In this document: positions 1 through 55,396 of the stretch, one piece after another
How positions within the stretch are numbered: the first letter of the stretch is position 1
How the letters are laid out: the number at the start of each line of letters is the position of its first letter
DNA from: Thermoleophilia bacterium
GTDB taxonomy: Bacteria > Actinomycetota > Thermoleophilia > RBG-16-64-13
NCBI GenBank assembly: GCA_040772905.1
Contig: JAXGXJ010000015.1
Span: 465-64,464, forward strand
DNA length: 64,000 nt
Direction: 5' to 3'
Translations under genes and position numbers: made by a program
The notes under the pieces: generated by a model
Told to the model about the DNA's origin: nothing
Seen by the model: the letters and a program-made list of their open reading frames with translations, nothing else
Database searches by the model: none

Positions 1-1646
1 TCCTCTTCCAGCTTGGTGTTCACCGGCAGGATGATGTCGGCCAAGAGAGCGTCGTTCTCGAGCCAGGGATGCTGAGCCCACATGAACTCGATGTCGGGAT
101 GCTGCATGGCCCGCACGTAGTCGTTACCGGCGTTCCAGCAGGTGATCCAGGAAGGAGAGTCGGTCCACACAGCGTGGATCTTGGAGCAATCCGGGTTGGG
201 ATAGATGCGCTTGACGAACTGGTCTTCGCGCGGCGCTGTCTCCGATTCGCAGCCGTACCATTCGCACTCGCCCTCGAGGATGGCCTTCGGGATGAAGGTC
301 TTCGGCAACGAAGGATAGTGGCTGTCCGACGGATGGCCGCCGGTGTACGCGGTGCGCAGGTTGGGCACGCGCAGCGGCTTGGGCTGAGCGTACTGATCGG
401 GGAAGTCGAACAGACCCCACTCGATCATCTTCACCTGGTTCTGGCCGGGTTTGCCCAGGCCCTGCATGGCCAGGCAGATGCCCTGCAGACGGGCAGGCTC
501 GGTGGCGTACGGGCCGCGGATGCCGGGGCCGCCGTTGCCGATGACCACGCTGGTGCGTTTGGACGCCCATTCTTTGGCCAGAGCTTTGATGACCCGGGCC
601 GGAACGCCGCAGATGGGAGCCGCCCACTCGGGGGTCTTCGGCTCGCCGTCTTCCTCGCCCATGACGTAGGCCTCGAAGGCGTCCACACCCACGGCGTGGC
701 TCTCGAGGTATTCCTTATCATAGGTGCCGTCCTTGAACCACTGATAGCAGATGGCCAGGTAGAGGGCGGCGTCGGTGTTCGGCAGCACAGGGATCCACCT
801 GTCGGCGTGGACCGCGGCGGCGTAGTTGAGGTCGGGGCACACGTAGATCTGTTTGATGCCCAGTTCGGTGTACCAGTAGCTGAGGCGGCTGGGCAGCTGG
901 CCCTGCCAACCCCACGGGGTGGTCTCCTGGTCGCAGCCCCAGAAGAGCAGCAGTTCGCAATTCTCGGCCACATCATAGAGCAGGTTGCTCTGCTTGCCCT
1001 GACCCACCGGCTCACAACCCCAGAAGTGCTTGCTACCCCACCACCAGCCTTCCCAGCTGTCCGGCTGCCTGATCTGGAGGGTGTAACCGCCCCAGAGCGG
1101 GAGCAGCTTACGGCCGGCGCCGTGGCAGGCCTGCACCACTTTGTTCTCGCCGTGCTGGTCGCACTGGTAGAGAAGCGCGGTGGGACCGTAGGTCTCTTTG
1201 ATGCGGTTCATCTCGCCGGCGATGATGTCCAGCGCCTCGTCCCAGGAGATGCGCACGTACTTGCTCTTGCCGCGGTTCTGGACGTTGCGGCCGCCGGGGC
1301 CGGTTGAACCGGGAGCGCCGCTGGGATCGAAGTCCACCCTCTTCATGGGGTAGCGCACACGGGCTGGAGAGTACACGCGCTTCTTGTACGCGATGGAATA
1401 GGGCGGGATGAGCGTCTTCATGCTCGGCTCGAAGGTCGAGCCCCGCACTTCCATCTTCCAGGGGTTCATGTCCTTCTCGGGATCATACTTCCAGTCGTAG
1501 TGCATCGGACGGATGCGGATGATCTTGCCATCCTTGACGTCCACCATGGAAGCGTTCGACCCGTTCTCGGGCACGCCACAGAAGCTGATATCGCGTATCA
1601 GCGTCTTTTCGCCCGACTTCCCGTTCGGCGCGCGATCTTCCGCCAT
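1..1646 (-). CDS. Molybdopterin oxidoreductase alpha subunit, pyrogallol-phloroglucinol transhydroxylase (AthL)-like, partial (runs off the window start)
   Basis: Hand translation of the minus strand from ATG at 1646 (RBS AAAGGAGG 4 nt upstream) gives MAEDRAPNGKSGEKTLIRDISFCGVPENGSNASMVDVKDGKIIRIRPMHYDWKYD...PMKRVDFDPSGAPG...NVQNRGKSKYVRISWDEALDIIAGEMNRIKETYGPTALLYQCDQHGENK. The open frame was verified to position about 1080 by hand translation and assumed continuous to position 1. It is colinear with the N-termini of the complete alpha ORFs at 4317..6920 and 55397..58027. It is missing from the ORF track only because it has no stop inside the window. The plus ORF 69..1307 is its antisense shadow. 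Confidence 0.8.
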   Translation of the reverse strand, partial: MAEDRAPNGKSGEKTLIRDISFCGVPENGSNASMVDVKDGKIIRIRPMHYDWKYDPEKDMNPWKMEVRGSTFEPSMKTLIPPYSIAYKKRVYSPARVRYPMKRVDFDPSGAPGSTGPGGRNVQNRGKSKYVRISWDEALDIIAGEMNRIKETYGPTALLYQCDQHGENKVVQACHGAGRKLLPLWGGYTLQIRQPDSWEGWWWGSKHFWGCEPVGQGKQSNLLYDVAENCELLLFWGCDQETTPWGWQGQLPSRLSYWYTELGIKQIYVCPDLNYAAAVHADRWIPVLPNTDAALYLAICYQWFKDGTYDKEYLESHAVGVDAFEAYVMGEEDGEPKTPEWAAPICGVPARVIKALAKEWASKRTSVVIGNGGPGIRGPYATEPARLQGICLAMQGLGKPGQNQVKMIEWGLFDFPDQYAQPKPLRVPNLRTAYTGGHPSDSHYPSLPKTFIPKAILEGECEWYGCESETAPREDQFVKRIYPNPDCSKIHAVWTDSPSWITCWNAGNDYVRAMQHPDIEFMWAQHPWLENDALLADIILPVNTKLEE

Positions 1647-1735: not shown

Positions 1736-2584
1736 TCATGCAGTCAACAGAGTCGGGGGCATCGATCCGCTGGACCGGCTGAGGTTCCGGCTCAACGCAT
1801 CCGCGCTGCTCTTGACCGCTGCCGCCAGCCTCTGCCTGTCCTCGCCGCCGAACCGTTCCGCCGGTGCAACCACCGTGATGACGGCCCGCAGGTCACCGCT
1901 GGGCCCGAAGACGGGAGCCGAGACCGCACACACGCCCAGGTCCTGCTCCTCGAGGTCGTAGGCCAGCCCCTCCTCCGCCACCCGGCGCAACTCCCGACGC
2001 ACGACCTCAGGATCGGTCTTGGTATGCGGGGTGAGCTTCACCTGGCGCAGACGGCCCAGCAGTCTCTCCTGCTCCACCTCGGGCCGATAGGCAGCCAAGA
2101 CCTTCATGGCCGAGTTCGCCAGGTTGCGAAGCACCCGCCCCAGAGGCAGATTGGGCTTGAAGGGGTGCGACGTCGCCACCTGGTCCACCACCACTGCGCC
2201 GCCCTCCCCCTCCACGGCCAACTCCACCGTCTCCCCCGTGATGTGCGCCAGTTCCTCCACAAAAGCATGCGAAGAGCGGGCGAAACCCACGTTGGAGAGA
2301 CTCAGATAGGCCACCGGGATCATGGCGCCGCCCAGATGGTACAGCTCGGTCTGAGGATCGAAGGTGACAAAGCCCTTGGCTTCCAGAGTCCGGAGCATGC
2401 GATAGGCGGTGGTCTTGCATATGCCGGTGTGCTGCGCGATGTCGCGCAGACTCCATTCGGGATGCTCCACGTCGAACAGCGCCAGGATAGACAGGCCGCG
2501 TGCCAATGCCTGCACGTACAGGTCGCCGGCTTCCTCTCCGCTCCCGGTGGTGACGCTCCTCGGCCGTCCTCCGACCCTAACCAT
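1736..2584 (-). CDS. IclR-family transcriptional regulator
   Basis: 282-aa ORF. It has an N-terminal HTH (LSILALFDVEHPEWSLRDIAQHTGICKTTAYRMLRTLEAKGFV) and a C-terminal IclR effector-binding domain pattern. Confidence 0.85.
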   Translation of the reverse strand: MVRVGGRPRSVTTGSGEEAGDLYVQALARGLSILALFDVEHPEWSLRDIAQHTGICKTTAYRMLRTLEAKGFVTFDPQTELYHLGGAMIPVAYLSLSNVGFARSSHAFVEELAHITGETVELAVEGEGGAVVVDQVATSHPFKPNLPLGRVLRNLANSAMKVLAAYRPEVEQERLLGRLRQVKLTPHTKTDPEVVRRELRRVAEEGLAYDLEEQDLGVCAVSAPVFGPSGDLRAVITVVAPAERFGGEDRQRLAAAVKSSADALSRNLSRSSGSMPPTLLTA

Positions 2585-2719: not shown

Positions 2720-3280
2720 TCACCGCCCGGTGGCCAGCGTCTTGCCCGCTTCGTATGCCCGGATCTTCAGGCCGGCATCGCGGTCGGCGGTCTCCGGATC
2801 GTTGGCGTTGGTGCAGACGATGTTCTCCACCAACTCGAAGCCGAACCAGGGGAACATAGCCGCGGTGTACTCGAAGTACGATTCGAACAGGCGCGGGTCT
2901 TCCATGCCCTGTGTGTACACGGTGACCAGCTTCTTGTTGCCGAAACGAGGCTTCCACTCATTATCGGTGAGAGGGAAGAAGCGGTCGTACATGTTCTTCA
3001 CCGGGCCTGTCATCTGCATCATGTAGATGGGTGAGCCCACCACGACTGCGTCGGCCTTCATCACTTCTCTGACGGCCTCGCTCAACTCGTCATTGATGGA
3101 GCAGTCGTCTTTCATGCGGCAGGAGAAGCAGCTCTGGCAGGCCATGAACTTCATCTTGAACAGGGTGTGGAAATGGACCTGGGCTCCGTTATCCCGGGCC
3201 CCCTTGGTGATGAGGTTGAGCAGGGTGGCGGTGTTCCCGTCCATGCGCGGGCTGCCATTGAAGATGACGATCTCTTTCAC
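2720..3280 (-). CDS. NAD(P)H-dependent FMN reductase / flavodoxin-fold protein
   Basis: The ORF is 2720..3325. The likely true start is GTG at 3280, preceded by GGAAGGAAAGG at a 6-nt spacing. The protein begins VKEIVIFNGSPRMDGNTATLL, typical of SsuE/flavodoxin-like FMN reductases. Confidence 0.65.
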   Translation of the reverse strand: MKEIVIFNGSPRMDGNTATLLNLITKGARDNGAQVHFHTLFKMKFMACQSCFSCRMKDDCSINDELSEAVREVMKADAVVVGSPIYMMQMTGPVKNMYDRFFPLTDNEWKPRFGNKKLVTVYTQGMEDPRLFESYFEYTAAMFPWFGFELVENIVCTNANDPETADRDAGLKIRAYEAGKTLATGR

Positions 3281-3385: not shown

Positions 3386-4267
3386 TCAGAGCTCGATGAA
3401 GCCCAAGTTCAGAGACTCATCTTTGAGAGTGACGGTAGTGGAGTACTTGCGGCCTCCGGCATCGACTTCCACCCTGTATTCGCCGTTGTTCAAACCGTCG
3501 AACTTGAACTCACCGAAGAAGTTCGTCGCCCGGGTGGCAAGGACCGAGGTGTCTTGACAGTTGGCTACGCCCGCGCCCGAGAGGGTGCAGGCGATGCCGC
3601 CCTCCTTGGAATGCAGGGTGACCGTCGCTCCCTCGAAGCAGTCACCGTCCACGAGCACGCCCGCGGTGATGAAGTTCTTGGTGAACTTGTACAGGTTCTT
3701 GTAGAGCGTACGCGGCTTGGTACCCAGCTCCGCCCGGTAGGCCTCCAGGCCCTCGGCCTGAATCATCTTCTCCATCTCTTCAGGCTCGACGAAGTAGGTG
3801 GCCATGGCATCGGTGGGGCAGGAATGCGTGCAGCGGGTGGTATGCGGCGTCCAGGTGGGGTCGTCGATGAGGTGCGCGCAGAAGATGCACTTCTGAGGCA
3901 ACTGGGCCTCTTCGTTCCAGAAGATCGCACCATAGGGGCAGCTGTCGACCAGGTCTTTGCGGCCCTTGGCCTTCTCCAGGTCGATCATGACGATACCGTC
4001 GGGGCGGTAGTAGATGGCGCCATCTGACGCTTCCACACACGGCGCCTCGGCGCAGTGCTGACAGGGCATGGGCAGATAGGCCACGTCGTTGCGGGAGTAC
4101 GTGCCGCGCTCGCGCCGCTTGATGTCCACCCAACGGTGGCCATGGCGAGGCTGGGCAGCGGTGTACCCTGGCCAATCGTTGTCGACGAACTCGTCTTTGT
4201 CGGCCATAAAGCAGTTGTTGCAGTCGTGACACTTGGCAACATCGATGACCTTGTACCATTGCTTCAT
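3386..4267 (-). CDS. Transhydroxylase-like beta subunit (BthL-like): 3x[4Fe-4S] ferredoxin domain plus C-terminal beta-sandwich domain
   Basis: True start is MKQWYKVIDVAKCHDCNNC (ATG at 4267; RBS AAGGAG 9 nt upstream), not the ORF start at 4354. It has Cys clusters CHDCNNC, CQHCAEAPC and CIFCAHL, and a C-terminal domain (EYRVEVDAGGRKYSTTVTLKDES) resembling the transthyretin/CarbopepD-like fold of BthL. Confidence 0.85.
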   Translation of the reverse strand: MKQWYKVIDVAKCHDCNNCFMADKDEFVDNDWPGYTAAQPRHGHRWVDIKRRERGTYSRNDVAYLPMPCQHCAEAPCVEASDGAIYYRPDGIVMIDLEKAKGRKDLVDSCPYGAIFWNEEAQLPQKCIFCAHLIDDPTWTPHTTRCTHSCPTDAMATYFVEPEEMEKMIQAEGLEAYRAELGTKPRTLYKNLYKFTKNFITAGVLVDGDCFEGATVTLHSKEGGIACTLSGAGVANCQDTSVLATRATNFFGEFKFDGLNNGEYRVEVDAGGRKYSTTVTLKDESLNLGFIEL

Positions 4268-4316: not shown

Positions 4317-6920
4317 TCAGTCCATCTCGTAGATGCCGCCGTCCCACTTCTCAACTTCGATCTGCATGGTGTTCGGCGCCATGCCGCAGGCGTACTTGGA
4401 CATGTAGCGATCGGGTGACAGGATGTTCACGCATCCACCGCGATCAGCGGACTTGCCCGGAGTGCCCAGCGGGTTGTACTCAGCGCACGACTCGTAGGTG
4501 TGCACCGTGCCGGGCTGCGTCCTCTGCCCCACCTGGGCGCACAGGATGACGGAGCCGCGGTCGTTGTAGGCGCGCACAAGGTCGCCGTCCTTGATGCCAC
4601 GGGCATCGGCGTCGACCTTGTTGATCCTGATGATCCAGTAGTAGTGCCCATCCTCTTTGAGGACCCGATGGTCTTTGATGTCGTTCATGAAGCTGTCCTT
4701 GCCGTCACCCATGGTGTGGAAGGAGAAGCGGGGATGCGGAGCCAGCATGCCCAAGGGGTACTTCTTGGCCAACTCACAACGCGGACCCTCCCAGGCGGGC
4801 ACGTAGGTATGCATGGCGGGACGGTACTCGTCGACGAAGCCCTGCTCTTCGAAGTTCTTGAGGCTGGTGGAGATGAACTCGACCTTGCCCGTGCTGGTCT
4901 GCAGACCTTTGCGCCCCACCGAGTTGTTGAGACGCGGACCCCAGTCCGGGGTGTCCTTCTCGCGATCCTCTGCGAACCAGCGCAGAGCCGGGGTCTTCTT
5001 CCGGTTTGGGTTGTCCGGCACCACGAAGTACCCCTTCTCGAGGAAGTCCTCCCACGTCATATACTTGGGCATGTCGGTGGCGTGGTAGTACTGCTTGACC
5101 CAGTCGAGGTCGGTCTTGCCTTCGCTGAACATAGGGCCGATACCCAGCTTGTCGGCGATCATGCAGTATATGTCGTAATCCGACTTCGACTCGCCCACCG
5201 GCTCGATGCACTTCTTCTGCAGCGTGATCACGCGGTGGTTGGTCTGCTGGTAGTTGTCGGGGATGTAGCCCGAGCAGTTGGCGAACTCGGAGATGTCCCA
5301 GCGCTCGAAGTTGGTGCAGGCCGGCAGGATGATGTCGGCGAAGGGCACCTCACCCTCGAACCAGATCGACTGGCTGACGACGAACTCCAGGCTCGGATGC
5401 GTGTACATGCGGGCATAGCGGTTGGTGGCCGTCATGGTGCCGATCCACGGGCCGCCGTATTTCCACAGCATCTTGATCTTGGGATAGCCCGGAGCCGGAT
5501 ACTGATACTGATGGAACTGGGCCTGGATGTCGCTGCCGCAGAAGCCCTTGCCCGACCACTCGAACTTGCCGTCCATGATGCATTCCGGCACCTTCAGGCG
5601 CGGGATGTGCTGACCTGCGGCCGTGTTGATGTTGGAGGGCGACGGGAAAGAGGTCTTTCCGTCGAACATCCTCCAGGCGAACTTGAAGCCGGCGGCAGAG
5701 TTCTCGCAATCGCCGGAGATACCACCCTCGGCGTAGCCGGGGAAGTAGAAGTCGTAGTCGGTGGGCACACCCTGCGTGGTGGAGTAGATGTTCGAGCCCG
5801 GCTTGCCCATGCCCTGCATGGTTGCAAGCGCGATCATGCCGCGGGCCCACTCGACGCCGTGGGAGGCGCGGCAGGCTCCGCCCCAGCCGCCCAGACCACC
5901 GGCGGCAAGCATGGTCTTCTTCTTGCCCCACTCGCGGGCCAGGGCGCGGATCTCACACGCCGGAACGCCCGACTCGGCCTCGGCCCATTCACACGTCTTG
6001 GGCACACCGTCGGTCTTGCCGAGCACGTACTCAGACCACTCTTCGAAGCCGTGGGCGTGAGTAGCGACGTACTCTTTGTCGTACGTGCCCTCGGTGAGCC
6101 AGGTGTAGGCGATGGCGAAGGAAAGGGCGTGGTCGGTGCCGATCTTGGGCGAAAGCCACTTGTCGCCGATGAGGCTGGCCGTGTGGTTGTAGAACGGGTC
6201 GATGAAGACCATCTTGATGCCCAGGTCCTTCATCCAGTAACGCCGGACGGTGGACTCATGGGCCGAGTAGATGCCGGTGTTCACTTCGGGGTCGGACGAC
6301 CAGAACACGATCATCTCGGTGTTCTGCAGCGTGTCCTCGAGCAGGTCGTACTGCTCCGGGTTGCCGAGGCGCCAACTGAAGCCCCACATATGCATGCCGC
6401 CCCAGTGCCAGCCTTCCCAGCTGTCGGGGTTGTGGTCGGCGTAGGTGATGCCCACCATGTTCATGAAGCGGAAGTAGGTGCTGTGGCGGTAACCGACGTT
6501 GCCCCACATGTGGTGGGAACTGGGGCTGGTGAGGATGGCCGCGGGGCCGGCTTCGCGCTTGACGCGGTTGACCTCTGCCACCACGATGTCGGTGGCTTCA
6601 TCCCAGGAGATGGGCTCGTAGCCGGAGATGCCGCGGTTCTGGATGTTACGCTCGCCGTTGGGATCGAAGTCCACGCGCTTCATGGGCGTCATGATGCGCT
6701 TGTCGGAGTAGATCATGGACTTGAAGCCCGCGGTATAGACGGAATACGTGGTCTTGCGCGGCGGGGTGAAGGTCCTACCCCTCGCCTCGATCTTCCACGA
6801 GGGCGCGTCGACGGCGTCGTCGAAGTCCATCGGCGTGATCCTAATGATCTTCCCGTCCTTCACATAGACGAAGACAGGACCACCGGTGGATGAGTTGGTC
6901 AAGCGCACTACTTCGCCCAT
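4317..6920 (-). CDS. Molybdopterin (bis-MGD) oxidoreductase alpha subunit, pyrogallol-phloroglucinol transhydroxylase (AthL)-like
   Basis: 867 aa with no signal or TAT motif. It carries the MKRVDFDPNGERNIQNRG and DSWEGWHWGGMHMWG blocks shared with the two other alpha paralogues in the window. RBS GAGAGG is 6 nt upstream. Confidence 0.9.
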   Translation of the reverse strand: MGEVVRLTNSSTGGPVFVYVKDGKIIRITPMDFDDAVDAPSWKIEARGRTFTPPRKTTYSVYTAGFKSMIYSDKRIMTPMKRVDFDPNGERNIQNRGISGYEPISWDEATDIVVAEVNRVKREAGPAAILTSPSSHHMWGNVGYRHSTYFRFMNMVGITYADHNPDSWEGWHWGGMHMWGFSWRLGNPEQYDLLEDTLQNTEMIVFWSSDPEVNTGIYSAHESTVRRYWMKDLGIKMVFIDPFYNHTASLIGDKWLSPKIGTDHALSFAIAYTWLTEGTYDKEYVATHAHGFEEWSEYVLGKTDGVPKTCEWAEAESGVPACEIRALAREWGKKKTMLAAGGLGGWGGACRASHGVEWARGMIALATMQGMGKPGSNIYSTTQGVPTDYDFYFPGYAEGGISGDCENSAAGFKFAWRMFDGKTSFPSPSNINTAAGQHIPRLKVPECIMDGKFEWSGKGFCGSDIQAQFHQYQYPAPGYPKIKMLWKYGGPWIGTMTATNRYARMYTHPSLEFVVSQSIWFEGEVPFADIILPACTNFERWDISEFANCSGYIPDNYQQTNHRVITLQKKCIEPVGESKSDYDIYCMIADKLGIGPMFSEGKTDLDWVKQYYHATDMPKYMTWEDFLEKGYFVVPDNPNRKKTPALRWFAEDREKDTPDWGPRLNNSVGRKGLQTSTGKVEFISTSLKNFEEQGFVDEYRPAMHTYVPAWEGPRCELAKKYPLGMLAPHPRFSFHTMGDGKDSFMNDIKDHRVLKEDGHYYWIIRINKVDADARGIKDGDLVRAYNDRGSVILCAQVGQRTQPGTVHTYESCAEYNPLGTPGKSADRGGCVNILSPDRYMSKYACGMAPNTMQIEVEKWDGGIYEMD

Positions 6921-7132
6921 TCCTTACCTCTCTTTGCTCTTGTGCACATCCGGGGCCGCCCGTGCGTCGCTCCGCGGCACCGCGGTTAGAGCCGGCTTTC
7001 TGACCCTTCCATCTATCAATATACAAGCAGTCTCGGCGGGTTGCCCGCTCTCAGACCATGCTTGGCATCCACACTACGGGACTAAATACCGTCTGATGGG
7101 ATGGCTCGGGCGAGGCCCGAACTTGGGACCGA

Positions 7133-7972
7133 TCAGGCCTTCTCCAGCATGATGGTGCCCAGGTTGACGCTCTCGCCGGGGGTGACCGTGGCGCTGTAGG
7201 GCGCGTAGCCGTCGGCCTGCACCGTGACGGTGTATTCCCCTGCCGGCTGCAGCCTGTCTACCACGAACTCGCCGTAGTTGTTTGCCACACCCTCGCCCAC
7301 GACTTGGCCCACCGAGACGATGGTCACCTTGGCGCCCTCGGCGCACTCGTCGGTGTCCTTGAACACAGCGCTGCCCCCGATGAAGACCTTCTCCCACTTG
7401 TACAGGTTCTTGTACTTCACCCGCGGGTCGGTACCCAACTCGGCGCGGTAGTCTTCGAGGCCCTCCTCGTCTACGATCCTGGCCCATTCGTCATCGTCGG
7501 CCAATACCAGACGGATGGCGCCCGTGGGACACACCTGCGAGCAACGGGTCTCGGTCCAGCCTTGGTCGAGGAGATGGGCGCAGCCGTTGCACTTCTGCGC
7601 CACTTGGGCCTCTTCGTTCCAGTAGATGGCGCCGTAGGGGCAGGTGTCCACGATCTCGGGATGGCCTTTGGCCTTCACCGGGTCGATAATCACCAGACCA
7701 TCCGGGCGTCGGTAGACACTGCCGTCGGCGGACGCCTCGACGCAGGGGGCGTCGGCGCAGTGCTGGCAGGGCATGGGCAGATAGGCCACCTGCACGATGG
7801 GGTACTGGCCCCGCTCCTTGCGGTGGATGTTCATCCACCTGTGCCCCGACCACGGCTGTGCCACCGAGTAGGGCAGGAAGTCGTTGCCGACGAACTCGTC
7901 CTTGTCTGCCAGAAAGCAATCGTTGCAGTCGTGACAGCGGGCGACGTCGATGATCATGTTCCATTTCTTCAT
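7133..7972 (-). CDS. Transhydroxylase-like beta subunit (BthL-like), orphan copy located upstream of the alpha gene
   Basis: 279 aa, MKKWNMIIDVARCHDCNDC..., with the same Cys-cluster and C-terminal beta-sandwich architecture as 3386..4267 and 58024..58851. RBS GGGAGGG is upstream. Confidence 0.85.
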   Translation of the reverse strand: MKKWNMIIDVARCHDCNDCFLADKDEFVGNDFLPYSVAQPWSGHRWMNIHRKERGQYPIVQVAYLPMPCQHCADAPCVEASADGSVYRRPDGLVIIDPVKAKGHPEIVDTCPYGAIYWNEEAQVAQKCNGCAHLLDQGWTETRCSQVCPTGAIRLVLADDDEWARIVDEEGLEDYRAELGTDPRVKYKNLYKWEKVFIGGSAVFKDTDECAEGAKVTIVSVGQVVGEGVANNYGEFVVDRLQPAGEYTVTVQADGYAPYSATVTPGESVNLGTIMLEKA

Positions 7973-8019
7973 CTAGGGTGTCCCTCCCATGTCTCCTCCT
8001 GGATCAGGCTGTACCGTGC

Positions 8020-8058
8020 CGCGAAGAGCCCCCTCGGCCACCGAGGAGGCTCTTCGCG
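8020..8058 (-). terminator. GC-rich hairpin (11-bp stem CGCGAAGAGCC/GGCTCTTCGCG with a nested inner stem) between hbd-like and beta1; a probable terminator lacking a U-tract
   Basis: Inverted repeat read from the sequence, with coordinates accurate to about 2 nt. It is followed by a second small hairpin GTCAGaccacCTGAC. Confidence 0.45.
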
Positions 8059-8099
8059 AAGGTCTGAGTGGAAGTCAGACCACCTGACTGTCCGGCCGC

Positions 8100-9050
8100 C
8101 TACTTCTTGGCCTCCTGCGCCGCCACGCGGGCAAGGTAGTCGAGCAGGCGGTCACGAGTGGCCTGCATGCTCTCGGGAGTCCAGTCGTAGAACCCCTTCT
8201 GCGTCTTGAAGCCGAGTTCGTTGTTGTCGATCATCTGCTTCAGCAGCGGCGAGGGCTCGTGCGAATCCTCCAGGTACTTGAGCACGTAGCTGTGGATGGA
8301 GTACGTCAGGGGCGTACCCACCATGTCGGAGTTCTCCAGCGGGGCGAGGATGGGCAGCCTGATGCCGGGGCCGAACTTGAGGGCCTCGTCCACGGTAGCC
8401 GGATCGGCGATGCCGCGCTCGACGATGGAGATGGCCTCGCGCCACAGCGCGTGCTGCAGCCTGTTGGCCACGAAACCGGGTACGTCCTTCTTCACATCCA
8501 CGGGGTGCTTGCCCACGGCGCGCATGAGGTCCATGGTGAGGGTCACCACCCAGTCGGCGATGTCCTCGGTGCGCACGACCTCTACCAACGGGATGAGATA
8601 GGGCGGGTTCCACCAGTGCGTTCCGATGATGCGGTGGCGCCCCTTGGAGGTGCTGGCGATCTCGGTGATGCTCATGACCGAGGTGTTGGTGGCGAGCACG
8701 GTGTCGGGATCGGACTTCTCGTCCATCATGGCGAAGAGCTCTTGTTTGAGCGCCATGTCCTCCACCGCGCACTCGAGCACGAACTGAGCCCCGTCCAGGG
8801 CCTCGTCGTAGCTCTGCGTGGTGGTGATGCGGGCGATGGCGGGCTCGATGTCCTCCACCTTGCCCACGCCACGTTCGGCCAGGAAGCCCAGGTCGTGGCG
8901 GATGGTGGCCATGGCCTTGGCCAGGGTCTCCTGCTTGCGGCTCATGAGGTGCACGTCGTAGCCGGCCACAGCGAACACCTGGGCCGTGCCGTGCCCCATC
9001 ATGCCGCCGCCGATGATGGCGACCTTCTTGACGTCAGCGAGTGTTTTCAC
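8100..9050 (-). CDS. 3-hydroxyacyl-CoA / 3-hydroxybutyryl-CoA dehydrogenase (Hbd family)
   Basis: Rossmann motif VAIIGGGMMGHG plus the 3HCDH C-terminal domain. The ORF track starts at a TTG (9062). A GTG at 9050 overlaps the stop of the upstream SDR (GTGA coupling) and is more plausible. Confidence 0.8.
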   Translation of the reverse strand: MKTLADVKKVAIIGGGMMGHGTAQVFAVAGYDVHLMSRKQETLAKAMATIRHDLGFLAERGVGKVEDIEPAIARITTTQSYDEALDGAQFVLECAVEDMALKQELFAMMDEKSDPDTVLATNTSVMSITEIASTSKGRHRIIGTHWWNPPYLIPLVEVVRTEDIADWVVTLTMDLMRAVGKHPVDVKKDVPGFVANRLQHALWREAISIVERGIADPATVDEALKFGPGIRLPILAPLENSDMVGTPLTYSIHSYVLKYLEDSHEPSPLLKQMIDNNELGFKTQKGFYDWTPESMQATRDRLLDYLARVAAQEAKK

Positions 9051-9844
9051 GATGCGAGCCAACCTCCGTCTACATTAAGGATTACTCCGGTAAGGAACTC
9101 AGAGGCGTCGGACGAGAGGAAGACCGCTGCTCCGACGAAATCATCGGGCACGCCGGCCCGACCCCAGGGGATACGGGTCATGTGGAAGTCGTACAGAGCC
9201 TTGTCCTTCAGTACCTGCTCGGTCAACGGCGTCCAGAAGATGGCCGGCGCTATGGAGTTCACATTGATCTTGTACTTGGCCCATTCCGTGGCCAACTGCT
9301 TGGTGAGGGCATGCACCGCGCCCTTGGAGGTGGTGTAGCCCGAGTAGCCGCCGGGATTGCCCTGGAACCCACGCACCGAGCCGATGGTGATGATCTTGCC
9401 TCCACCCTGACCGATCATCTGTATGCCGGCCTTCTGGCAGCAGAGGAACGTGCCGCGCACGTTGACGTCCATCATGCGCTGCCATTCGTCCACCGGCATC
9501 TGTTCGGTGGGGATGCGGTTGGAGATGCCGGCCGCCGTGACCAGGATGTCCAGGCGTCCGAACTCCTCGACCACGCGGTCGACCGTCGCCTGCACGCCGG
9601 CCTCGTCCACCACGTCGCAGGTGAGGGCGAGGGCCTTGCGGCCGAGCGCCTGCAACTCCTCGGTGACCGGCTGCATGGCCGTGGCCGAGAAATCGGCCAC
9701 GGCCACGTCGGCACCGTGTATCGCCAAACCACGGGCGATGGTGCTGCCCAAAGCACCGCCACCGCCGCTGATGAGGGCGACCTTACCGCTCAGGTCGAAC
9801 TGCTGCGCGACCTGCTCGGCCGGTATACGACCCGGTAGATCCAT
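9047..9844 (-). CDS. Short-chain dehydrogenase/reductase (SDR), copy 1
   Basis: 265 aa with GKVALISGGGGALG and catalytic YTTSK. It belongs to the KduD/gluconate-5-DH-like classical SDR group. Confidence 0.85.
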   Translation of the reverse strand: MDLPGRIPAEQVAQQFDLSGKVALISGGGGALGSTIARGLAIHGADVAVADFSATAMQPVTEELQALGRKALALTCDVVDEAGVQATVDRVVEEFGRLDILVTAAGISNRIPTEQMPVDEWQRMMDVNVRGTFLCCQKAGIQMIGQGGGKIITIGSVRGFQGNPGGYSGYTTSKGAVHALTKQLATEWAKYKINVNSIAPAIFWTPLTEQVLKDKALYDFHMTRIPWGRAGVPDDFVGAAVFLSSDASEFLTGVILNVDGGWLAS

Positions 9845-9847
9845 CGA

Positions 9848-10645
9848 CTAGCCGGCTACGCTGCCACCGTCGACGGGCACGATGGCGCCGGTGACGAAGT
9901 CAGAAGCCGCGCTGGAGAGGTAGAGGACGGTACCGATCATGTCATCGGGCACGGCCGCACGGCCCCACGGGATGCGCGACAGGAAGATCTGCTTGAGTTT
10001 CTCGTCCTCGAGCACCTGCTGCGTGAGCGGGGTCCAGAAGATGCAGGGCGCGATGCAGTTGACGTTGATGTGGTACTTGGCCCACTCGGTCGACAGCTGC
10101 TTGGTGAGCAGATGGACGGCACCCTTGGTCGTGCCATAGGCGGCGTAGCCACCGGGATGGCCCAGCTCGCCACGGACGGAACCGACGGTGACGATCTTGC
10201 CGAAGCCCTGCTTGATCATCTGCTTGCCGACCAGCTTGCAGGTGATGAACGTGCCGGTGACGTTGGCCGTCAAGACCTTCTCGAAGGCATCCAGGGGGAA
10301 GTCCTCGGCCGGGTGACGGTCGGCGATGCCGGCCGCGGTAATCAGGACATCGATCTTGCCGAACTCGGCCAAGACCTTGTCGACCATCTCCTGCTGGCTG
10401 GCTTCGCTGCAGACGTCGCAGGCGATAGGCAGGGCCTTCGCGCCCAGTTCGGTGCACTCTTTCGCCACAGCCTCGAGGTTCTCGAGCTTACGGCTGGTGA
10501 CGACGATGTTGGCACCGTTTGCCGCGAAGCCCTTGGCCAGGGCATGGCCCAAGAAGCCGGCGCCGCCTGTGATGAGGACGACTTTGCCCTTGACGTCGAA
10601 GAGGTTCTTGATCTGGTCGATGGTCAGTTCTCCGGGTGCGCCCAT
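9848..10645 (-). CDS. Short-chain dehydrogenase/reductase (SDR), copy 2 (tandem paralogue)
   Basis: 265 aa with GKVVLITGGAGFLG and YGTTK. It is roughly half identical to copy 1 by eye. Its stop is 3 bp from the start of copy 1. Confidence 0.85.
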   Translation of the reverse strand: MGAPGELTIDQIKNLFDVKGKVVLITGGAGFLGHALAKGFAANGANIVVTSRKLENLEAVAKECTELGAKALPIACDVCSEASQQEMVDKVLAEFGKIDVLITAAGIADRHPAEDFPLDAFEKVLTANVTGTFITCKLVGKQMIKQGFGKIVTVGSVRGELGHPGGYAAYGTTKGAVHLLTKQLSTEWAKYHINVNCIAPCIFWTPLTQQVLEDEKLKQIFLSRIPWGRAAVPDDMIGTVLYLSSAASDFVTGAIVPVDGGSVAG

Positions 10646-10782
10646 GTCTCTTCTTCTCTCCTTCTGGTCTGGATACAGTGCCGGGCGACGGGCCGGACGG
10701 CCGCGGCGCCCGTTCCCGGTCGGGGGGACCGGGATGAGGCGGCCGGGCAGAGCCCGGCCGCCGGTGCTTCCTCAGGTGATCC

Positions 10783-11607
10783 TTACTCCCTGGGGCGAAG
10801 ACCCAGGATCTGCCGGGCCTCGTCCACATTGGCGATGGGCCGGTTGAACTCGTTGGCCAGACGCACAACGCGCTCCACGAACTCGTAGTTGTGCTTGGCC
10901 AGCACACCCTTGCTCAGGAAGACGTTGTCCTCCATGCCCACGCGCACGTGGCCGCCCATATGGATGGCCATACTGGTGATGGCCATGGCGGTCGGGCCGC
11001 AGCCGAACGCCGACCAGGTAGAGCCGGCCGGCATGTCGTCGACGAGGTTGATGAGGTTCCGAGGCGTGCCCTCGGCGCCGCCGTGCACGTTCAGGCAACA
11101 CTGGAAGTGCAGCGGCTCCTGCAGATAACCCTCTTTGAGGAGACGCTTGGCGTTCCACACCATGCCGATGTCGAACACTTCGATCTCGGGCTTGATGCCG
11201 TTCTCGATGTAGGCCTTGCCCAGTTTCCGCAGGAAGCTGGGCGAGTTCTCGAACACGCCCTCATAGAAGTTCATCGTACCCGCGTCGAAAGTACCCATGT
11301 CGGGCTTCAACTCGACGTGAGGAGTGATGCGCTGCTCATCGGTCCAGCCCAGGCCGCCCGAGCTGGTCATGTTGATGATGATGGGGCATTTCTCTTTGAT
11401 GAGGCGGACGGTCTCGCGGAACCTCTCCAGGTCCATGGTGGCCTTGTGGTCCTCGGTGCGCACGTGCACGTGAGCGACCGAAGCGCCGGCCTGGTACGCC
11501 ATGTAGACCTCTTCCGCGATCTCCTCGGGCTGAGTGGGGAGATACGGTGTGTTCTCCTTGGTCGTCATAGCCCCGGTCGTCGCCACGGTTATGATGAGTT
11601 TCTCCAT
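10783..11607 (-). CDS. BKACE-family beta-keto acid cleavage enzyme (3-keto-5-aminohexanoate cleavage enzyme Kce / DUF849 homologue)
   Basis: True start is MEKLIITVATTGAMTTKENTPYLP (ATG 11607, GGAGG 8 nt upstream). The ORF track N-extension to 11706 is spurious. The protein is a full-length TIM-barrel Kce-like sequence. Confidence 0.85.
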   Translation of the reverse strand: MEKLIITVATTGAMTTKENTPYLPTQPEEIAEEVYMAYQAGASVAHVHVRTEDHKATMDLERFRETVRLIKEKCPIIINMTSSGGLGWTDEQRITPHVELKPDMGTFDAGTMNFYEGVFENSPSFLRKLGKAYIENGIKPEIEVFDIGMVWNAKRLLKEGYLQEPLHFQCCLNVHGGAEGTPRNLINLVDDMPAGSTWSAFGCGPTAMAITSMAIHMGGHVRVGMEDNVFLSKGVLAKHNYEFVERVVRLANEFNRPIANVDEARQILGLRPRE

Positions 11608-11916
11608 ACATCGACCTCCATGAGATTGTGCTCGACTCACTCGAAGAAGACGGCCCGAAGGCCGTCCTCGAGAGTACAGATATGACGGTCCGGCGGGCAC
11701 CATCACCCGACCTAGCAGTCATTCATACCATTTTTATACTCTACACCATCCCCAGGTTCGGCCCAAGGTATGCGAGAGGTCTCATCGACTCGGACAGCCA
11801 CAAACGGCCACGACGCCTGCGGCTGCAGCCGCCCACCCGTGGCCGCGGCAGCAGTCCTCGCACGCAACCCCGGCTCACATCCACTATAATGGCTTCCGCT
11901 CGCCGTGGGCGGGCGG

Positions 11917-12002
11917 GCCGAAGTGGCGGAACTGGCAGACGCGCTGGACTCAAACTCCAGTGAGGCTCACACCTCGTGCGGGTTCGATCCCCGCCTTCGG
12001 CA
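11917..12002 (+). tRNA. tRNA-Leu (anticodon CAA), type II with long variable arm
   Basis: The acceptor stem GCCGAAG/CTTCGGC pairs perfectly. The anticodon stem-loop is CTGGA-CTCAAAC-TCCAG. There is a 17-nt variable arm, a T-arm GCGGG-TTCGATC-CCCGC, and discriminator A. CCA is not encoded. TATAAT lies at 11885..11890 upstream. Confidence 0.85.
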
Positions 12003-12082
12003 TGCACACAGCGGTCTCGTCGCTCTTCGATGTTGCTCATCGGGCCTTTGGGGGCGCAAGCTTTGCCGAACCCGTAGATTTC

Positions 12083-12102
12083 GTGTAGCGGCACTGCTAC
12101 AC
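12083..12102. promoter_or_regulatory. Inverted repeat GTGTAGC-n6-GCTACAC immediately upstream of the XRE regulator start; a possible auto-operator
   Basis: Read from the sequence. It ends 9 bp before ATG 12111. Confidence 0.3.
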
Positions 12103-12110
12103 TCTAGACT

Positions 12111-12611
12111 ATGAGTGCAGCTTCGGAAGAGCGCGAACGACGGTACGTAGAGCTGGTGGGCGAGAAGCTTCGCCGCCTGCGGCAGGACCGCGGGCTGAGC
12201 CTGCAAGAGGTCTGCGAGCGGTCAGGCGGCTCGTTCGTGGTCTCCACCCTCAGCGCCTACGAGCGCGGAAAGCGCAGCCTCAGCCTGGAGCGACTCTACG
12301 AACTGGCAGCCATCTATGGCCAGTCCCCCATGTCGATCCTCGACGTGGAGGACGACCCTGAGTTCCAGCGCACGCTCAGCCGCAACGGGCCCCTGCGCAT
12401 CCGGCTGGAGAGCCTCGACAAGCTGACCCCCGACGAGCGCCGGCCTCTCGAGACCTACCTGGGTTTCCTGCGTGAGTTGCGCAACGACCCGGCCCGCGAC
12501 ATGCTCACCATCCGCAAGGACGACCTCACCTATCTCTCCGGCCTCTACGGCGTGAGGCCGCAGGCCCTCAAGGAGTATCTGGAGCGCGAGGGCGTCCTCA
12601 TCGCCGACTAG
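12111..12611 (+). CDS. XRE-family helix-turn-helix transcriptional regulator
   Basis: 166 aa. It has an HTH_XRE-like segment (LRRLRQDRGLSLQEVCERSGGSFVVSTLSAYERGKRSLSLERLYELAAIY). It converges on and overlaps the 3' end of trpA by 14 bp. Confidence 0.7.
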   Translation: MSAASEERERRYVELVGEKLRRLRQDRGLSLQEVCERSGGSFVVSTLSAYERGKRSLSLERLYELAAIYGQSPMSILDVEDDPEFQRTLSRNGPLRIRLESLDKLTPDERRPLETYLGFLRELRNDPARDMLTIRKDDLTYLSGLYGVRPQALKEYLEREGVLIAD

Positions 12612-41649: not shown

Positions 41650-41679
41650 CCCCGGCACCACCACTGAGAGAGGAGCACC

Positions 41680-47705: not shown

Positions 47706-47966
47706 GACGAAGTCGGCCGAAACGGGGGCCGGCGCCGTCGAGAAGAGGGGCCTTTTTGGGCCCGGTTCACGATCGACGTGGTAACCTATCGGGGTTGGTT
47801 CAAGACTACTGGCGGTACTGCCGCCCCAGGCCGCCAGCCGGCCTGACAAGGGCGGCTTCCTCGTGCTTGCACCCACCGTTCGCCCTCACGGCGACCCTGG
47901 TCGGGACTGCGTCCTGGTCGTGGGGACACCGGGGACCGCCATGATGCGGAGGGCTGTTCACACACC

Positions 47967-50900
47967 ATGGCTACGCTCGGCATTGACATCGGCTGCATAA
48001 GCGTCAAGATCGCCATCGTCGGGGAACCGGAAGAGCAGGACCTGTTCCGCGACATCGCTGCGTCGTCTCCCCTCTTCCACGACCCGGTGGTAGCCGGGCG
48101 GGTGGCTCCTCACCCTGGTTCACCGCCGGTGCTGGCCACCAAGTACCGACGCATCAAGGGCAGCCCCACCGAGACTGCGCGCGACCTCCTGCAGCAGGTC
48201 ATGGATGCGCTGCCCGACGGTCTCATCAAGGCCGCCGGGGTCACCGGCACGGGCGGCCGATTGGTCGGCCGGATGTTGGGCCTCCCCTACGAGAACGAGT
48301 TCAGAGCCATCGCCCGCGCCGTGGGGGCTATGCACCCCGACGTCACCACTGTGTTCGAGATGGGCGGTGAGACCTCCAAGTTCATCCAGTTGGAGACCGA
48401 TGCCACTTCGGGCCGTGTGGGCATCGCCGACTACGGCACCAACGGTGACTGTGCCGCCGGCACCGGCTCCTTCATGGACCAGCAGGCCAACCGCCTGCTC
48501 TATGACATCGAGGACGTGGGTGAGATAGTGGGCGGGGCCGGCAAGGCCGCGTCCATCGCCGGGCGCTGCTCGGTGTTCGCCAAGTCGGATATGATCCACG
48601 CTCAGCAAAAGGGCTACCAGCCGCCAGAGGTGCTGAAAGGTCTCTGCAACGCTGTGGTGCGCAACTATCGCAGCACCATCGCCAAGGGCAAGGACATCGG
48701 CGCCCGGGTGGCCTTCATCGGGGGCGTGGCCGCCAACCTTGGAGCCGTGACGGCCATGCGCGAGGCCTTCGACGTGGACGAGCAGTCACTCGTCATCCCT
48801 CAGTACTACGCGTGGATGGGCGCCATAGGCACCGCCTTGACGGCCGCCGACGAGATGAGCGGCACTCAGGTGGTCACCTTCAACGCCCAGAAGCTCTCCC
48901 AGGGACAGCAATCCGAGTTCGAGACCAGCCCCGCCCTCTCCATGGAGCGGGTCATCCTTCTGCGCGACCGGGTAAAGCCCTACGAGTTCCCCGCACAGGG
49001 CACCATCGGCGCCTACCTGGGCATCGACATCGGGTCGGTCTCCACCAACCTTGTGGTCCTCGACGAGGACGGTGAGATGGTGAAGGAGATCTACGTGAAG
49101 ACCGACGGCCGGCCTGTGGAAGTGGTGAACAAGGGCCTGGCCGAGATCTGGAACGAGATGGGTGACCGCCTGGAGATCCTGGGTGTAGCCACCACAGGGT
49201 CCGGTCGCGAGCTCATCGGCGAGCTGGTCGGTGCCGATACCGTGAACGACGAGATCACCGCCCACAAGACGGGCGCCACCTTCATCGGGCGCAAGCTCAT
49301 CGACCGCGTGCCCGACACCATCTTCGAGATCGGCGGACAGGACTCCAAGTTCATCAGCCTGCAGGACGGCGTGGTGGTGGATTTCGCCATGAACGAAGCC
49401 TGTGCCGCCGGCACCGGCTCCTTCTTGGAGGAGCAGGCCGACAAACTGGGCATCCGCATCATCGGCGAGTTCGCCGAACTGGCACTGTCTTCGGAGGCTC
49501 CCGTGCGTCTGGGAGAGCGTTGCACCGTGTTCATGGAGCGTGACGTGAACTCCTACCTACAACGGGGAGCCGACAAGAAGGACCTCGTGGCCGGATTGGC
49601 CTACTCCATCGCCTACAACTACCTCAACCGCCTGGTGGGGCAGCGCCACGTAGGCGATACCATCTACTTCCAAGGCGGCACGGCCTACAACGACGCCGTG
49701 GCCTCCGCCTTCAGCATGATCCTGGAGAAGGACATCATCGTGCCGCCGCACAACGGCGTGGTGGGAGCCATCGGAGCCGCCCTCTTGGCCCGCGAGAAGA
49801 TGTCGGCCACCAAGGCCCCTTCCCGCTTCCGGGGCTGGGACCTGGAGCAGGTCGACTACACCGTCCGCGAGTTCACCTGCAAAGGGTGCAGCAACGAGTG
49901 CGACATCCGCCAGTTCACCATCGGCGGGGAGAAGACCTACTGGGGCGACAAGTGTTCAGACCGCTATCGCAAGCGGGCCAAGGTGGACAAGGAGCCCATC
50001 ATCCGCGACCTCATCGGTTTCCGCGATGCGCTCTTCTACTCGTACGTGACGGAGGCGGAGGACACCGCGCCCCTGCTGCGCAGCGGCACTGACGCGCCGC
50101 GCGGCACCATGGGCATACCCCGCACCATGTATACCTACGACCGCCTCCCCTTCTGGGCCACCTTCTTCAAAGGCTGCGGGTTCGACATCATGCTGTCCCG
50201 CCAGACCGACAAGAAGATCCGCGAGATGGGCATCGAGCGGGCGGTGGCTGAGCCTTGCTTCCCCATACGGGTAGCCCACGGACATGCCGCCGAACTGCTG
50301 GAGGCGGGCGCCGACCACATCTTCATACCCAACCAACTGAACGAGGAGACCGATCAACCCGGCATCGAGTCGCACGCATGTCCCTGGGGGCAGACACTCC
50401 CCCACGTGATCCGCCTCGCGCCGCATTTCGAGAACCATGCCGAGCGTTTTTTCGCCCCCACCATCCACTTCCGGCGGGGGCCTGCCTATGTGGGACGCAC
50501 GCTTCGTGCGGCCATGAAGCCCTACGGTGTGCCGGGCAAGGTGGTCGACCAGGCCCTCAAGGACGCCTACGAGGCCCAGGCCGAGTTCCGCGCTCGTCTC
50601 ATGACCGCAGGCGCGGACGCTCTGTCCACCCTGGAGGAGCACGACGAACTGGGCATCGTCTTGGTGGGACGCCCGTACAACATCTACGACTCGGGCGTCA
50701 ACATGGATATCCCGGCCAAGCTGCGCCGCTATTACGGTGTCAACATCATTCCCCTCGATTTCCTGCCCTTGTGGGGCAAGGAGACGCGCGAGGTGACGCC
50801 CAACATGTTCTGGAACTACGGGCGCAAGATCCTGCAGGCGGCCAAGGTGGTGGCGGCGCATCCCAACCTGCACATCATCTACATGACCAACTTCAAGTGC

Positions 50901-51092
50901 GGCCCCGACTCCTACGTGAAGCATTTCATCAGAGGAGCGTCATCGGAGCCGTTCCTGGTGCTGCAGTTCGACGAACACACCAATGACGCCGGCGCCATGA
51001 CCAGATGCGAAGCCTATCTGGACAGCAAGGGCTTCCTGCGCTGGTGGGCACGCGGCGACAGGGTCGCGAAACAGACCGTGAGGGAGAGCTAG
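47967..51092 (+). CDS. CoA-substrate-specific enzyme activase: two tandem BadF/BadG/BcrA/BcrD (HgdC-like) ASKHA ATPase domains fused to a Cys-rich DUF2229-like domain
   Basis: 1041 aa. It has two repeats of the activase pattern (LGIDIGCISVKIAIV...CAAGTGSFMDQQA; LGIDIGSVSTNLVVL...CAAGTGSFLEEQA). The C-terminal 400 aa carries CKGCSNECD and other conserved Cys. Confidence 0.75.
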   Translation: MATLGIDIGCISVKIAIVGEPEEQDLFRDIAASSPLFHDPVVAGRVAPHPGSPPVLATKYRRIKGSPTETARDLLQQVMDALPDGLIKAAGVTGTGGRLVGRMLGLPYENEFRAIARAVGAMHPDVTTVFEMGGETSKFIQLETDATSGRVGIADYGTNGDCAAGTGSFMDQQANRLLYDIEDVGEIVGGAGKAASIAGRCSVFAKSDMIHAQQKGYQPPEVLKGLCNAVVRNYRSTIAKGKDIGARVAFIGGVAANLGAVTAMREAFDVDEQSLVIPQYYAWMGAIGTALTAADEMSGTQVVTFNAQKLSQGQQSEFETSPALSMERVILLRDRVKPYEFPAQGTIGAYLGIDIGSVSTNLVVLDEDGEMVKEIYVKTDGRPVEVVNKGLAEIWNEMGDRLEILGVATTGSGRELIGELVGADTVNDEITAHKTGATFIGRKLIDRVPDTIFEIGGQDSKFISLQDGVVVDFAMNEACAAGTGSFLEEQADKLGIRIIGEFAELALSSEAPVRLGERCTVFMERDVNSYLQRGADKKDLVAGLAYSIAYNYLNRLVGQRHVGDTIYFQGGTAYNDAVASAFSMILEKDIIVPPHNGVVGAIGAALLAREKMSATKAPSRFRGWDLEQVDYTVREFTCKGCSNECDIRQFTIGGEKTYWGDKCSDRYRKRAKVDKEPIIRDLIGFRDALFYSYVTEAEDTAPLLRSGTDAPRGTMGIPRTMYTYDRLPFWATFFKGCGFDIMLSRQTDKKIREMGIERAVAEPCFPIRVAHGHAAELLEAGADHIFIPNQLNEETDQPGIESHACPWGQTLPHVIRLAPHFENHAERFFAPTIHFRRGPAYVGRTLRAAMKPYGVPGKVVDQALKDAYEAQAEFRARLMTAGADALSTLEEHDELGIVLVGRPYNIYDSGVNMDIPAKLRRYYGVNIIPLDFLPLWGKETREVTPNMFWNYGRKILQAAKVVAAHPNLHIIYMTNFKCGPDSYVKHFIRGASSEPFLVLQFDEHTNDAGAMTRCEAYLDSKGFLRWWARGDRVAKQTVRES

Positions 51093-55322: not shown

Positions 55323-55396
55323 TCGGTGCGTGTGCCCTGTGATCAACATGACCCTGCCGCAGCGGCTGTCGCCTCAGACGACCAGAGGAGCGGAGT

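Follow-up and report, generated by a model that had tools for sequence, protein, structure and literature searches.

Gene content and organization of the locus

This work describes a set of catabolic genes, and the molybdoenzyme genes that follow them, in a 64,000-nucleotide (nt) stretch of contig JAXGXJ010000015.1 from a Thermoleophilia bacterium (GenBank assembly GCA_040772905.1); the whole stretch is referred to here as the window. Four open reading frames on the minus strand encode a BKACE-family enzyme, two tandem short-chain dehydrogenases/reductases (SDR1 and SDR2), and a member of the 3HCDH dehydrogenase family. Pfam and NCBIfam scans confirmed all four, with strong family matches, at the positions given in a preliminary description of this DNA (Table 1). 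As that description had also observed, the four genes lie directly upstream of transhydroxylase-like genes of the AhtL type. On sequence comparison, the locus is probably a cluster for pyrogallol/phloroglucinol catabolism in an uncultured actinobacterium of the Thermoleophilia/Gaiellales type, with its dihydrophloroglucinol cyclohydrolase (DPGC), which the window lacks, most likely encoded elsewhere.

The window has a G+C content of 64% and contains BldD-, MMPL-, and PucR-type genes, which mark it as actinobacterial DNA. Because a contig of an independent metagenome-assembled genome (MAG; GCA_964450315.1, locus L001) encodes identical proteins in the same order, the arrangement is not an assembly artifact. 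The preliminary description held all four genes to be translationally coupled. This is so for SDR1 and SDR2, which are separated by a 4-nt spacer, and for SDR2 and the dehydrogenase gene, which are joined by a GTGA overlap, but not for the BKACE gene, which is followed by a gap of 137 nt. A further gap of 127 nt lies 3' of the dehydrogenase gene. Each gap contains one perfect, GC-rich hairpin (10738-10762 and 8023-8055; predicted at -26 and -28 kcal/mol) with no T-run after it, and a promoter/terminator scan of positions 6800-12300 gave no signal above chance.

At one end, the divergent BldD-like gene separates the cluster from the trp operon; this boundary is conserved, and the gene has the same position in nearly all related loci. 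At the other end, the gene for a second molybdenum (Mo) alpha subunit (MoA2) is cut by the window edge, and the cluster therefore extends beyond the window. Exact-protein matches to the window IclR regulator and BthL, sought for extension of the left edge, were lacking or confined to contigs of 1.2 to 1.5 kb.

Table 1. Features of the cluster and its boundaries, in window positions
Feature	Position	Strand	Evidence and remarks
BKACE-family enzyme, candidate triacetate acetoacetate-lyase	10783..11607	-	PF05853, 337 bits; MEKL start at 11607
SDR1, NADP-type, candidate phloroglucinol reductase	9848..10645	-	adh_short_C2, 187 bits
SDR2, NAD-type paralog of SDR1	9047..9844	-	adh_short_C2, 203 bits
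Predicted TfD-type (S)-3-hydroxy-5-oxohexanoate dehydrogenase	8100..9050	-	3HCDH family, 190 + 80 bits
BthL paralog, Fe-S beta subunit with C-terminal barrel	7133..7972	-	271 bits to 4v4c_B
AthL, ortholog of transhydroxylase large subunit	4317..6920	-	1711 bits to 4v4c_A; PF21423 AhtL-like_1st
BthL, ortholog of transhydroxylase small subunit	3386..4267	-	371 bits to 4v4c_B; ATG start at 4267
NADPH-dependent FMN reductase family protein	2720..3280	-	PF03358, 72 bits; GTG start inferred from relatives
IclR-family regulator within cluster	1736..2584	-	IclR_C, 118 bits, and HTH_IclR; several related loci have one
MoA2, second AhtL-like Mo alpha subunit, cut by window edge	1..1646	-	AhtL-like_1st and Molybdopterin domains
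BldD-like HTH regulator, divergent from operon	12111..12611	+	HTH_3 and BldD-like_C

The transhydroxylase genes

The large-subunit protein AthL (867 residues) is 81.5% identical over 865 residues to the large subunit of the crystallized pyrogallol hydroxytransferase of Pelobacter acidigallici (4v4c_A). Its first 27 residues match those of Pelobacter AthL exactly, and no twin-arginine translocation (Tat) signal is present. The small subunit, BthL, is 59.9% identical over 274 residues to 4v4c_B and combines Fer4_11 and CarboxypepD_reg domains. Because of these identities to the crystallized Pelobacter subunits, the genes described earlier as transhydroxylase-like are assigned as true orthologs of the Pelobacter pyrogallol-phloroglucinol transhydroxylase genes. 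In the alignment, the motifs PSSHHMWG, NPDSWEGW, and FPGYAEGG are identical between window AthL and 4v4c_A. They cover the active-site residues of the enzyme, reportedly His144, Asp174, Ser175 (the Mo ligand), and Tyr404 (Messerschmidt et al. 2004).

The BthL paralog at 7133-7972 is an orphan that lacks an adjacent cognate alpha gene; in other loci, a paralog of this type comes after a Mo alpha gene whose product shares 66% identity with window AthL. The FMN reductase gene may be accessory to the transhydroxylase. Copies 66 to 82% identical to it stand directly after bthL in at least nine related loci (L003, L009, L010, L011, L016, L018, L026, L031, and L077), and FMN_red genes are also found near the clusters of Wukongibacter and L087.

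The dehydrogenase resembles TfD rather than Hbd

In the preliminary description, the 3HCDH-family gene was read as a 3-hydroxy(acyl/butyryl)-coenzyme A (CoA) dehydrogenase (Hbd). TfD, by comparison, is a dehydrogenase of the same family that acts on a free acid; it is without the CoA-binding residues Lys56 and Asn221 of Hbd and keeps the catalytic Ser/His/Asn (PMC10470551). The sequences of Clostridium scatologenes TfD (CsTfD) and two Hbd enzymes published with Zhou et al. 2023 (PMC10470551) served for comparison. Identity of the window protein is 50% with the characterized CsTfD and 35% with Hbd 4KUH, and it reaches 59% with the genes in the TfD position of the Clostridium aceticum and Wukongibacter clusters. 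Both TfD-specific features are present, namely, a G-x-RLP insert that replaces the Asn221 region and a C-terminal extension. There is no Lys at the position of Hbd Lys56, the catalytic Ser/His/Asn are kept (motifs NTS, GTHxWNP, and GFVANR), and all NCBIfam Hbd models score the protein below their cutoffs. With these identities, and with the CoA-contact residues absent, the Hbd assignment was rejected, and the protein is predicted to be a TfD-type 3-hydroxy-5-oxohexanoate dehydrogenase.

The BKACE enzyme is of a Met type

Within the BKACE family, Glu14 of Kce binds the 5-amino group, and the corresponding residue in the characterized triacetate acetoacetate-lyase (TAL) of C. scatologenes (CsTAL) is Trp16 (PMC10470551). 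Alignment places a Met at this position in the window enzyme (motif TGAMTT). Kce is the best match of the enzyme both among structures (220 bits) and in NCBIfam, where the score against the Kce equivalog, 328.6 bits, lies under the cutoff of 382. The preliminary description had pointed to Kce-specific residues as the mark of a lysine-fermentation fragment; Glu14 is absent, and the window enzyme gives no such sign. Genes for lysine aminomutase, Kdd, and Kal were likewise absent among the window genes scanned. Residue 14, the Kce score, and the gene context together led us to reject the lysine-fermentation reading for this enzyme.

The TGAMTT motif is common to 72 of 72 close relatives among database homologs (64 to 99% identical), while the next tier of homologs, at 55 to 58% identity, includes enzymes with TGAWPT. 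These Trp-type BKACEs are the ones encoded within the phloroglucinol clusters of Dehalobacter, C. aceticum, and Wukongibacter; those of Dehalobacter and C. aceticum are 55 to 56% identical to the window enzyme. The same Met-type enzyme also occurs in DPGC-containing clusters of relatives, and because all 72 members of the clade, DPGC-bearing ones included, have Met14, this residue is no marker of the DPGC-less gene arrangement seen in the window. On these sequence features, the enzyme is a candidate TAL of a Met type.

A second SDR clade in the reductase position

SDR1 and SDR2 are 54% identical to each other. Their scores against PDB entry 5g4k, presumably the Clostridium sp. ATCC BAA-442 phloroglucinol reductase described by Conradt et al. 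2016, are 148 and 161 bits, and those against gluconate 5-dehydrogenase (1vl8) are 195 and 199 bits. A classical reductase homolog from the Dehalobacter cluster, by contrast, scores 345 bits against 5g4k and ends in GGYWAN, as does the C. scatologenes phloroglucinol reductase (CsPGR); the window SDRs are 37 to 40% identical to a classical homolog. In the clusters of C. aceticum and Wukongibacter, the SDR gene has the cupin gene on one side and the TfD gene on the other, and SDR1 is 62 to 63% identical to its product. DPGC and BKACE genes are present in both of these clusters, and that of Wukongibacter adds a gene for phloretin hydrolase.

In a neighbor-joining tree with Gno/KduD as outgroups, the C. 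aceticum and Wukongibacter SDRs, SDR1, SDR2, and the single SDR of other Thermoleophilia fell into one clade (88% bootstrap support), and the classical (5g4k) reductases fell into a separate clade (100%). SDR2 sequences form a clade with 99% support and occur only in L011, L021, L025, L026, and the window. By tree and gene position, two SDR lineages thus occupy the reductase position of phloroglucinol clusters: the 5g4k type and the second clade, which contains SDR1. No characterized member of this second clade was found. Besides the two window genes, it is found at the reductase position in L088:9001-9789 and L089:9001-9789. The Dehalobacter gene in the comparison (L083:6229-7020) is the classical type with the GGYWAN C terminus.

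The cofactor motifs of the two window SDRs differ. SDR1 has an NADP-type motif (VVTSRK), as do the Firmicutes members of its clade (TGRT), and SDR2 (VAVADF) shares an Asp-type NAD motif with the single SDR of most relatives. Judged by its position, SDR1 is the likely phloroglucinol reductase of this locus, and SDR2 is possibly an NADH-linked isoenzyme. The ratio of nonsynonymous to synonymous substitution rates (dN/dS) for SDR2 is 0.08 to 0.15.

A cassette variant without DPGC

The DPGC of the pathway is a Mn-dependent member of the Cyclase family, with Trp20 and Tyr22 as substrate residues (PMC10470551). The preliminary description reported no cyclohydrolase in the operon, and this extends to the window as a whole: neither tblastn nor a six-frame hidden Markov model (HMM) search with filters off found a DPGC-like (Cyclase-family, PF04199) gene in the entire 64 kb. 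Searches of the same two kinds likewise found no degraded or hidden copy of DPGC, or of the small cupin described below, in the window, L001, L011, or L021.

A collection of genomes was scanned with an alignment of Met-type BKACEs, giving 35 species-level loci, all from uncultured MAGs labeled Thermoleophilia, Gaiellales, or "Actinomycetes." Every one of the 35 shares a synteny that runs from the trp operon through the bldD-like gene to the BKACE gene and beyond, and the conserved locus reads trp operon, bldD-like gene, BKACE gene, cassette, and Mo genes. Among the 33 loci that extend far enough to show the DPGC position, the TfD gene is immediately followed by a gene of the Cyclase family in 31. 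The encoded DPGC is 83% identical to the characterized C. scatologenes enzyme (CsDPGC), Trp20 and Tyr22 included. A cupin of about 115 residues precedes the SDR gene in 30 of the 35 loci. This pattern is broken in L011, L021, and the window (together with L001), which read BKACE-SDR1-SDR2-TfD followed by Mo genes and have neither DPGC nor cupin. The variant exchanges a block of SDRx-TfD-DPGC, accompanied by the small cupin in most relatives, for SDR1-SDR2-TfD.

Judged by flanking housekeeping genes, the nearest relatives of the window are L009 and L010, in which DPGC is present, and L011 and L021, in which it is absent. BldD is 91 to 95% identical across these four loci. Between the window and L009/L010, AthL is 93 to 94% identical and TfD only 68%. 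Because the flanking BldD and AthL remain at 91 to 95% identity when TfD falls to 68%, a cassette has been exchanged at a fixed locus, and the window carries one of several cassette variants at this conserved site. In L025 and L026, the order is cupin-SDR1-SDR2-TfD-DPGC. Because the SDR pair occurs there together with DPGC, SDR2 is no substitute for it, and the idea that SDR2 replaces DPGC was rejected.

In a comparison of the three species without DPGC, purifying selection acts on all four genes (dN/dS of 0.08 to 0.24, at a synonymous divergence of about 1, which is near saturation). It follows that the cassette is functional and depends on ring-opened substrate being supplied.

The preliminary description named the genes at 2720 and 41680 as the nearest metal hydrolases. 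The first is an FMN reductase and was rejected as a hydrolase. The second, an Amidohydro_2 gene that we place at 41668, is unlinked, lying 30 kb away between glnA and amtB without an NCBIfam match, and was rejected as well. A further amidohydrolase (59945-61444) is HutI and was also set aside as a ring-opening candidate. No hydrolase-like gene was found in the locus, whose genes encode SDRs, a dehydrogenase, Fe-S/Mo subunits, an FMN reductase, and an IclR regulator.

A scan of metagenomes with the truncated MoA2 returned 80 loci, none of the DPGC-less type and none with DPGC downstream of MoA2. DPGC homologs group into 90% clusters of 100 to 700 members. In several relatives, a 265-residue TatD/Amidohydro_2-like metal hydrolase follows the MoA2-beta pair (L030:12269-13066, L019:19581-20375, L094, L096, and L098), and the equivalent region of the present genome would lie just past the left edge of the window. 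Because this hydrolase co-occurs with DPGC, it is no obvious substitute for it.

The gene for the cupin (PF07883, about 115 residues) immediately precedes that for the reductase-position SDR in phloroglucinol clusters of Thermoleophilia, Dehalobacter, C. aceticum, Wukongibacter, and Olsenella (L015:10986-11333, L083:5814-6158, L088:8638-8985, L089:8643-8987, and L084:6718-7071). It weakly matches, in NCBIfam, a Mycobacterium tuberculosis cupin annotated as a beta-D-galactosidase and stands outside the four described pathway enzymes. DPGC is 72 to 83% identical between Thermoleophilia and Clostridia (L015:13257-14246 versus CsDPGC). Together with the AthL identity of 81.5% between an actinobacterium and Pelobacter, this unusually high cross-phylum similarity reflects either very strong constraint or horizontal transfer.

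Proposed pathway and alternative explanations

In the proposed route, AthL/BthL would isomerize pyrogallol to phloroglucinol, as the identity of both subunits to the structurally solved enzyme suggests, and SDR1, placed by analogy with other clusters, would use NADPH to reduce phloroglucinol to dihydrophloroglucinol. A DPGC outside the window, most likely elsewhere in the genome, would open the ring to give 3-hydroxy-5-oxohexanoate. The TfD-type dehydrogenase would then oxidize this acid to triacetate, which, with acetyl-CoA, the Met-type BKACE would convert to acetoacetate and acetoacetyl-CoA. The pyrogallol to phloroglucinol to C4/C2 module that the preliminary description proposed is supported because the dehydrogenase is of the TfD type, the BKACE has no Glu14, the SDR1 clade stands at the reductase position, and the transhydroxylase is orthologous to that of Pelobacter; DPGC in the operons of relatives agrees with it.

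As for the gap at the ring-opening step, a DPGC encoded elsewhere in the genome is the simplest and most likely answer, one that we favor with some reserve. The modules of the pathway can be split across a genome, because the SDR pair occurs with DPGC in L025 and L026 and because Olsenella has a cupin-reductase-DPGC module separate from any TfD or BKACE gene. That this module stands alone makes a relocated DPGC plausible. Several observations weigh on the other side. In the related loci, DPGC is never away from the TfD or BKACE genes; neither DPGC nor cupin was found in the 64 kb or in the ±10-kb loci of L011 and L021, so that the copy elsewhere is assumed; neither SDR belongs to the clade of the characterized reductase, given scores of 148 to 161 bits versus 345 bits for a classical homolog; and the BKACE has Met where the only characterized TAL has Trp.

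The preliminary description raised the possibility of a non-orthologous ring-opening enzyme. Such an enzyme could be encoded outside the window, or SDR2 or a different protein of the cluster could have an activity that would not be expected of it, in a lineage without DPGC. The variant genomes would then hold no DPGC at all, and a new enzyme would open dihydrophloroglucinol or a derivative reduced by the second SDR. The joint absence of DPGC and cupin from the loci of three species-level genomes, in which the TAL-like, TfD, and SDR genes remain under purifying selection, agrees with this, as does the failure of DPGC to appear away from the cluster in relatives. The blockwise difference from the sister species (TfD at 68%, AthL at 93%) likewise suggests a distinct module. 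We nevertheless consider this explanation improbable. The locus offers no candidate, since its genes include nothing hydrolase-like and those at 2720 and 41668 are unrelated, and canonical DPGC is the rule in the clade, the nearest sister species included. SDR2 accompanies DPGC in L025 and L026 instead of replacing it, and the retro-Claisen hydrolase chemistry of ring opening is implausible for an SDR on established enzymology. The analysis, moreover, covers about 64 kb out of a genome that measures several Mb.

It is equally doubtful that the cluster serves a partial or salvage pathway, in which 3-hydroxy-5-oxohexanoate, triacetate, or related open-chain beta-hydroxy/keto acids made by neighboring organisms are taken up, or that it acts on a different but related substrate, such as a hydroxylated intermediate derived from hydroxyhydroquinone. 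In favor are persistent purifying selection with no DPGC in the cluster, the Met-for-Trp difference in the BKACE pocket, a divergent TfD only 65 to 70% identical to those of other clade members, and the several AhtL-like paralogs in the window. Met14, however, is common to the whole clade, whether DPGC is present or not. Salvage would also leave the retention of a reductase-position SDR and a true transhydroxylase without purpose, as both are sensible only if the ring is processed in the cell, and the cluster has no transporter gene.

A lysine-fermentation fragment (Kce with a 3-hydroxybutyryl-CoA dehydrogenase), or generic beta-oxidation/butyrate genes unrelated to the Mo enzymes, is very hard to credit: Kce does give the BKACE its top-scoring hits in NCBIfam and PDB, and the dehydrogenase does match 3-hydroxyacyl-CoA dehydrogenase models, but the residue, score, identity, and gene-content evidence given above, together with synteny to DPGC and transhydroxylase genes in 31 species, stands against both.

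Other molybdoenzyme and neighboring genes

The window holds further relatives of the transhydroxylase. MoA2 is about 37% identical to AthL and is very conserved and widespread, with copies 81 to 93% identical on metagenome contigs of 41 to 71% G+C (L093-L172), each with its own beta subunit and often near phloroglucinol-type genes. A third alpha subunit of the dimethyl sulfoxide-reductase family (55352-58851) is paired with a BthL-like beta subunit that has Fer4_11 and CarboxypepD_reg domains (58948-59634), and an XdhC-like maturation gene adjoins the pair on the opposite strand. The region 47847-52460 contains a fusion protein of 1,081 residues that joins a BcrAD/BadFG-type ATPase to DUF2229 and resembles acyl-CoA dehydratase activases; it is followed by a 455-residue protein with a weak DUF2229 match and then by an MMPL transporter.

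Implications for anaerobic polyphenol degradation

Phloroglucinol and pyrogallol are funnel intermediates in the breakdown of flavonoids and tannins without oxygen, a process that bears on carbon storage in anoxic soil and peat. By the present analysis, about 35 uncultured species of Thermoleophilia/Gaiellales, most of them from soil-type metagenomes, are assigned a complete or near-complete pyrogallol/phloroglucinol route with a predicted true transhydroxylase. This group is not known for a metabolism of this kind. Annotation that relies on the classical reductase, or that requires all four genes of the cluster, would overlook such organisms, because their reductase-position SDR belongs to another clade, their lyase is of the Met type, and one sub-lineage has no hydrolase in the cluster. 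Should the variant genomes prove to have no DPGC, they would represent a second way, independent of DPGC, of carrying out the key C-C cleavage in anaerobic polyphenol degradation.

The pathway and all of its enzyme families were already known (PMC10470551; transhydroxylase structure), and MAGs of 13 phyla have been found to express phloroglucinol reductase and transhydroxylase genes (PMC12203004). New here are the lineage, a true transhydroxylase operon physically fused to the genes for the later pathway steps, the Met-type lyase, the second SDR clade at the reductase position, and a sub-lineage whose cluster is without DPGC. Literature searches on an anaerobic hydroxyhydroquinone/BKACE pathway, or on Thermoleophilia in phloroglucinol degradation, returned nothing relevant.

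Comparison with known systems

The transhydroxylase genes agree with those of Pelobacter in that both subunits are full length, the N terminus is free of a Tat signal, the domain set is the same, and the alpha gene precedes the beta gene. They differ in their actinobacterial host, in the orphan beta paralog upstream and the FMN reductase gene downstream, and in the presence of two more AhtL-like paralogs in the window. The BKACE shares with Kce the HxH and xEDN motifs, conserved in the alignment at the zinc-ligand positions, and departs from it in having Met for Glu14, a score below the cutoff, and no lysine-fermentation context.

Compared with the C. scatologenes cluster (PGR, DPGC, TfD, and TAL; PMC10470551), the window has a TfD at 50% identity, a Kce-like BKACE without Glu14, and an NADP-type SDR; in both clusters, such an SDR is encoded directly upstream of the TfD gene, and the DPGC of the window's relatives occupies the expected place. 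The differences are that the window has no DPGC, that its SDRs fall outside the CsPGR/5g4k clade and include an extra NAD-type member, that its BKACE has Met in place of CsTAL Trp16, and that transhydroxylase genes are joined to its cluster.

SDR1 and TfD have their closest sequence relatives (62 to 63% and 59% identical) in uncharacterized phloroglucinol-type clusters of C. aceticum (L088) and Wukongibacter sp. M2B1 (L089), and the likewise uncharacterized cluster of Dehalobacter sp. DCM (L083) is, like that of the window, joined to an AhtL-like Mo enzyme. All three of these clusters have cupin, DPGC, Trp-type BKACE, and CoA-transferase or thiolase genes, none of which the window shares, and their order of cupin-SDR-TfD-DPGC is the majority arrangement among the Thermoleophilia.

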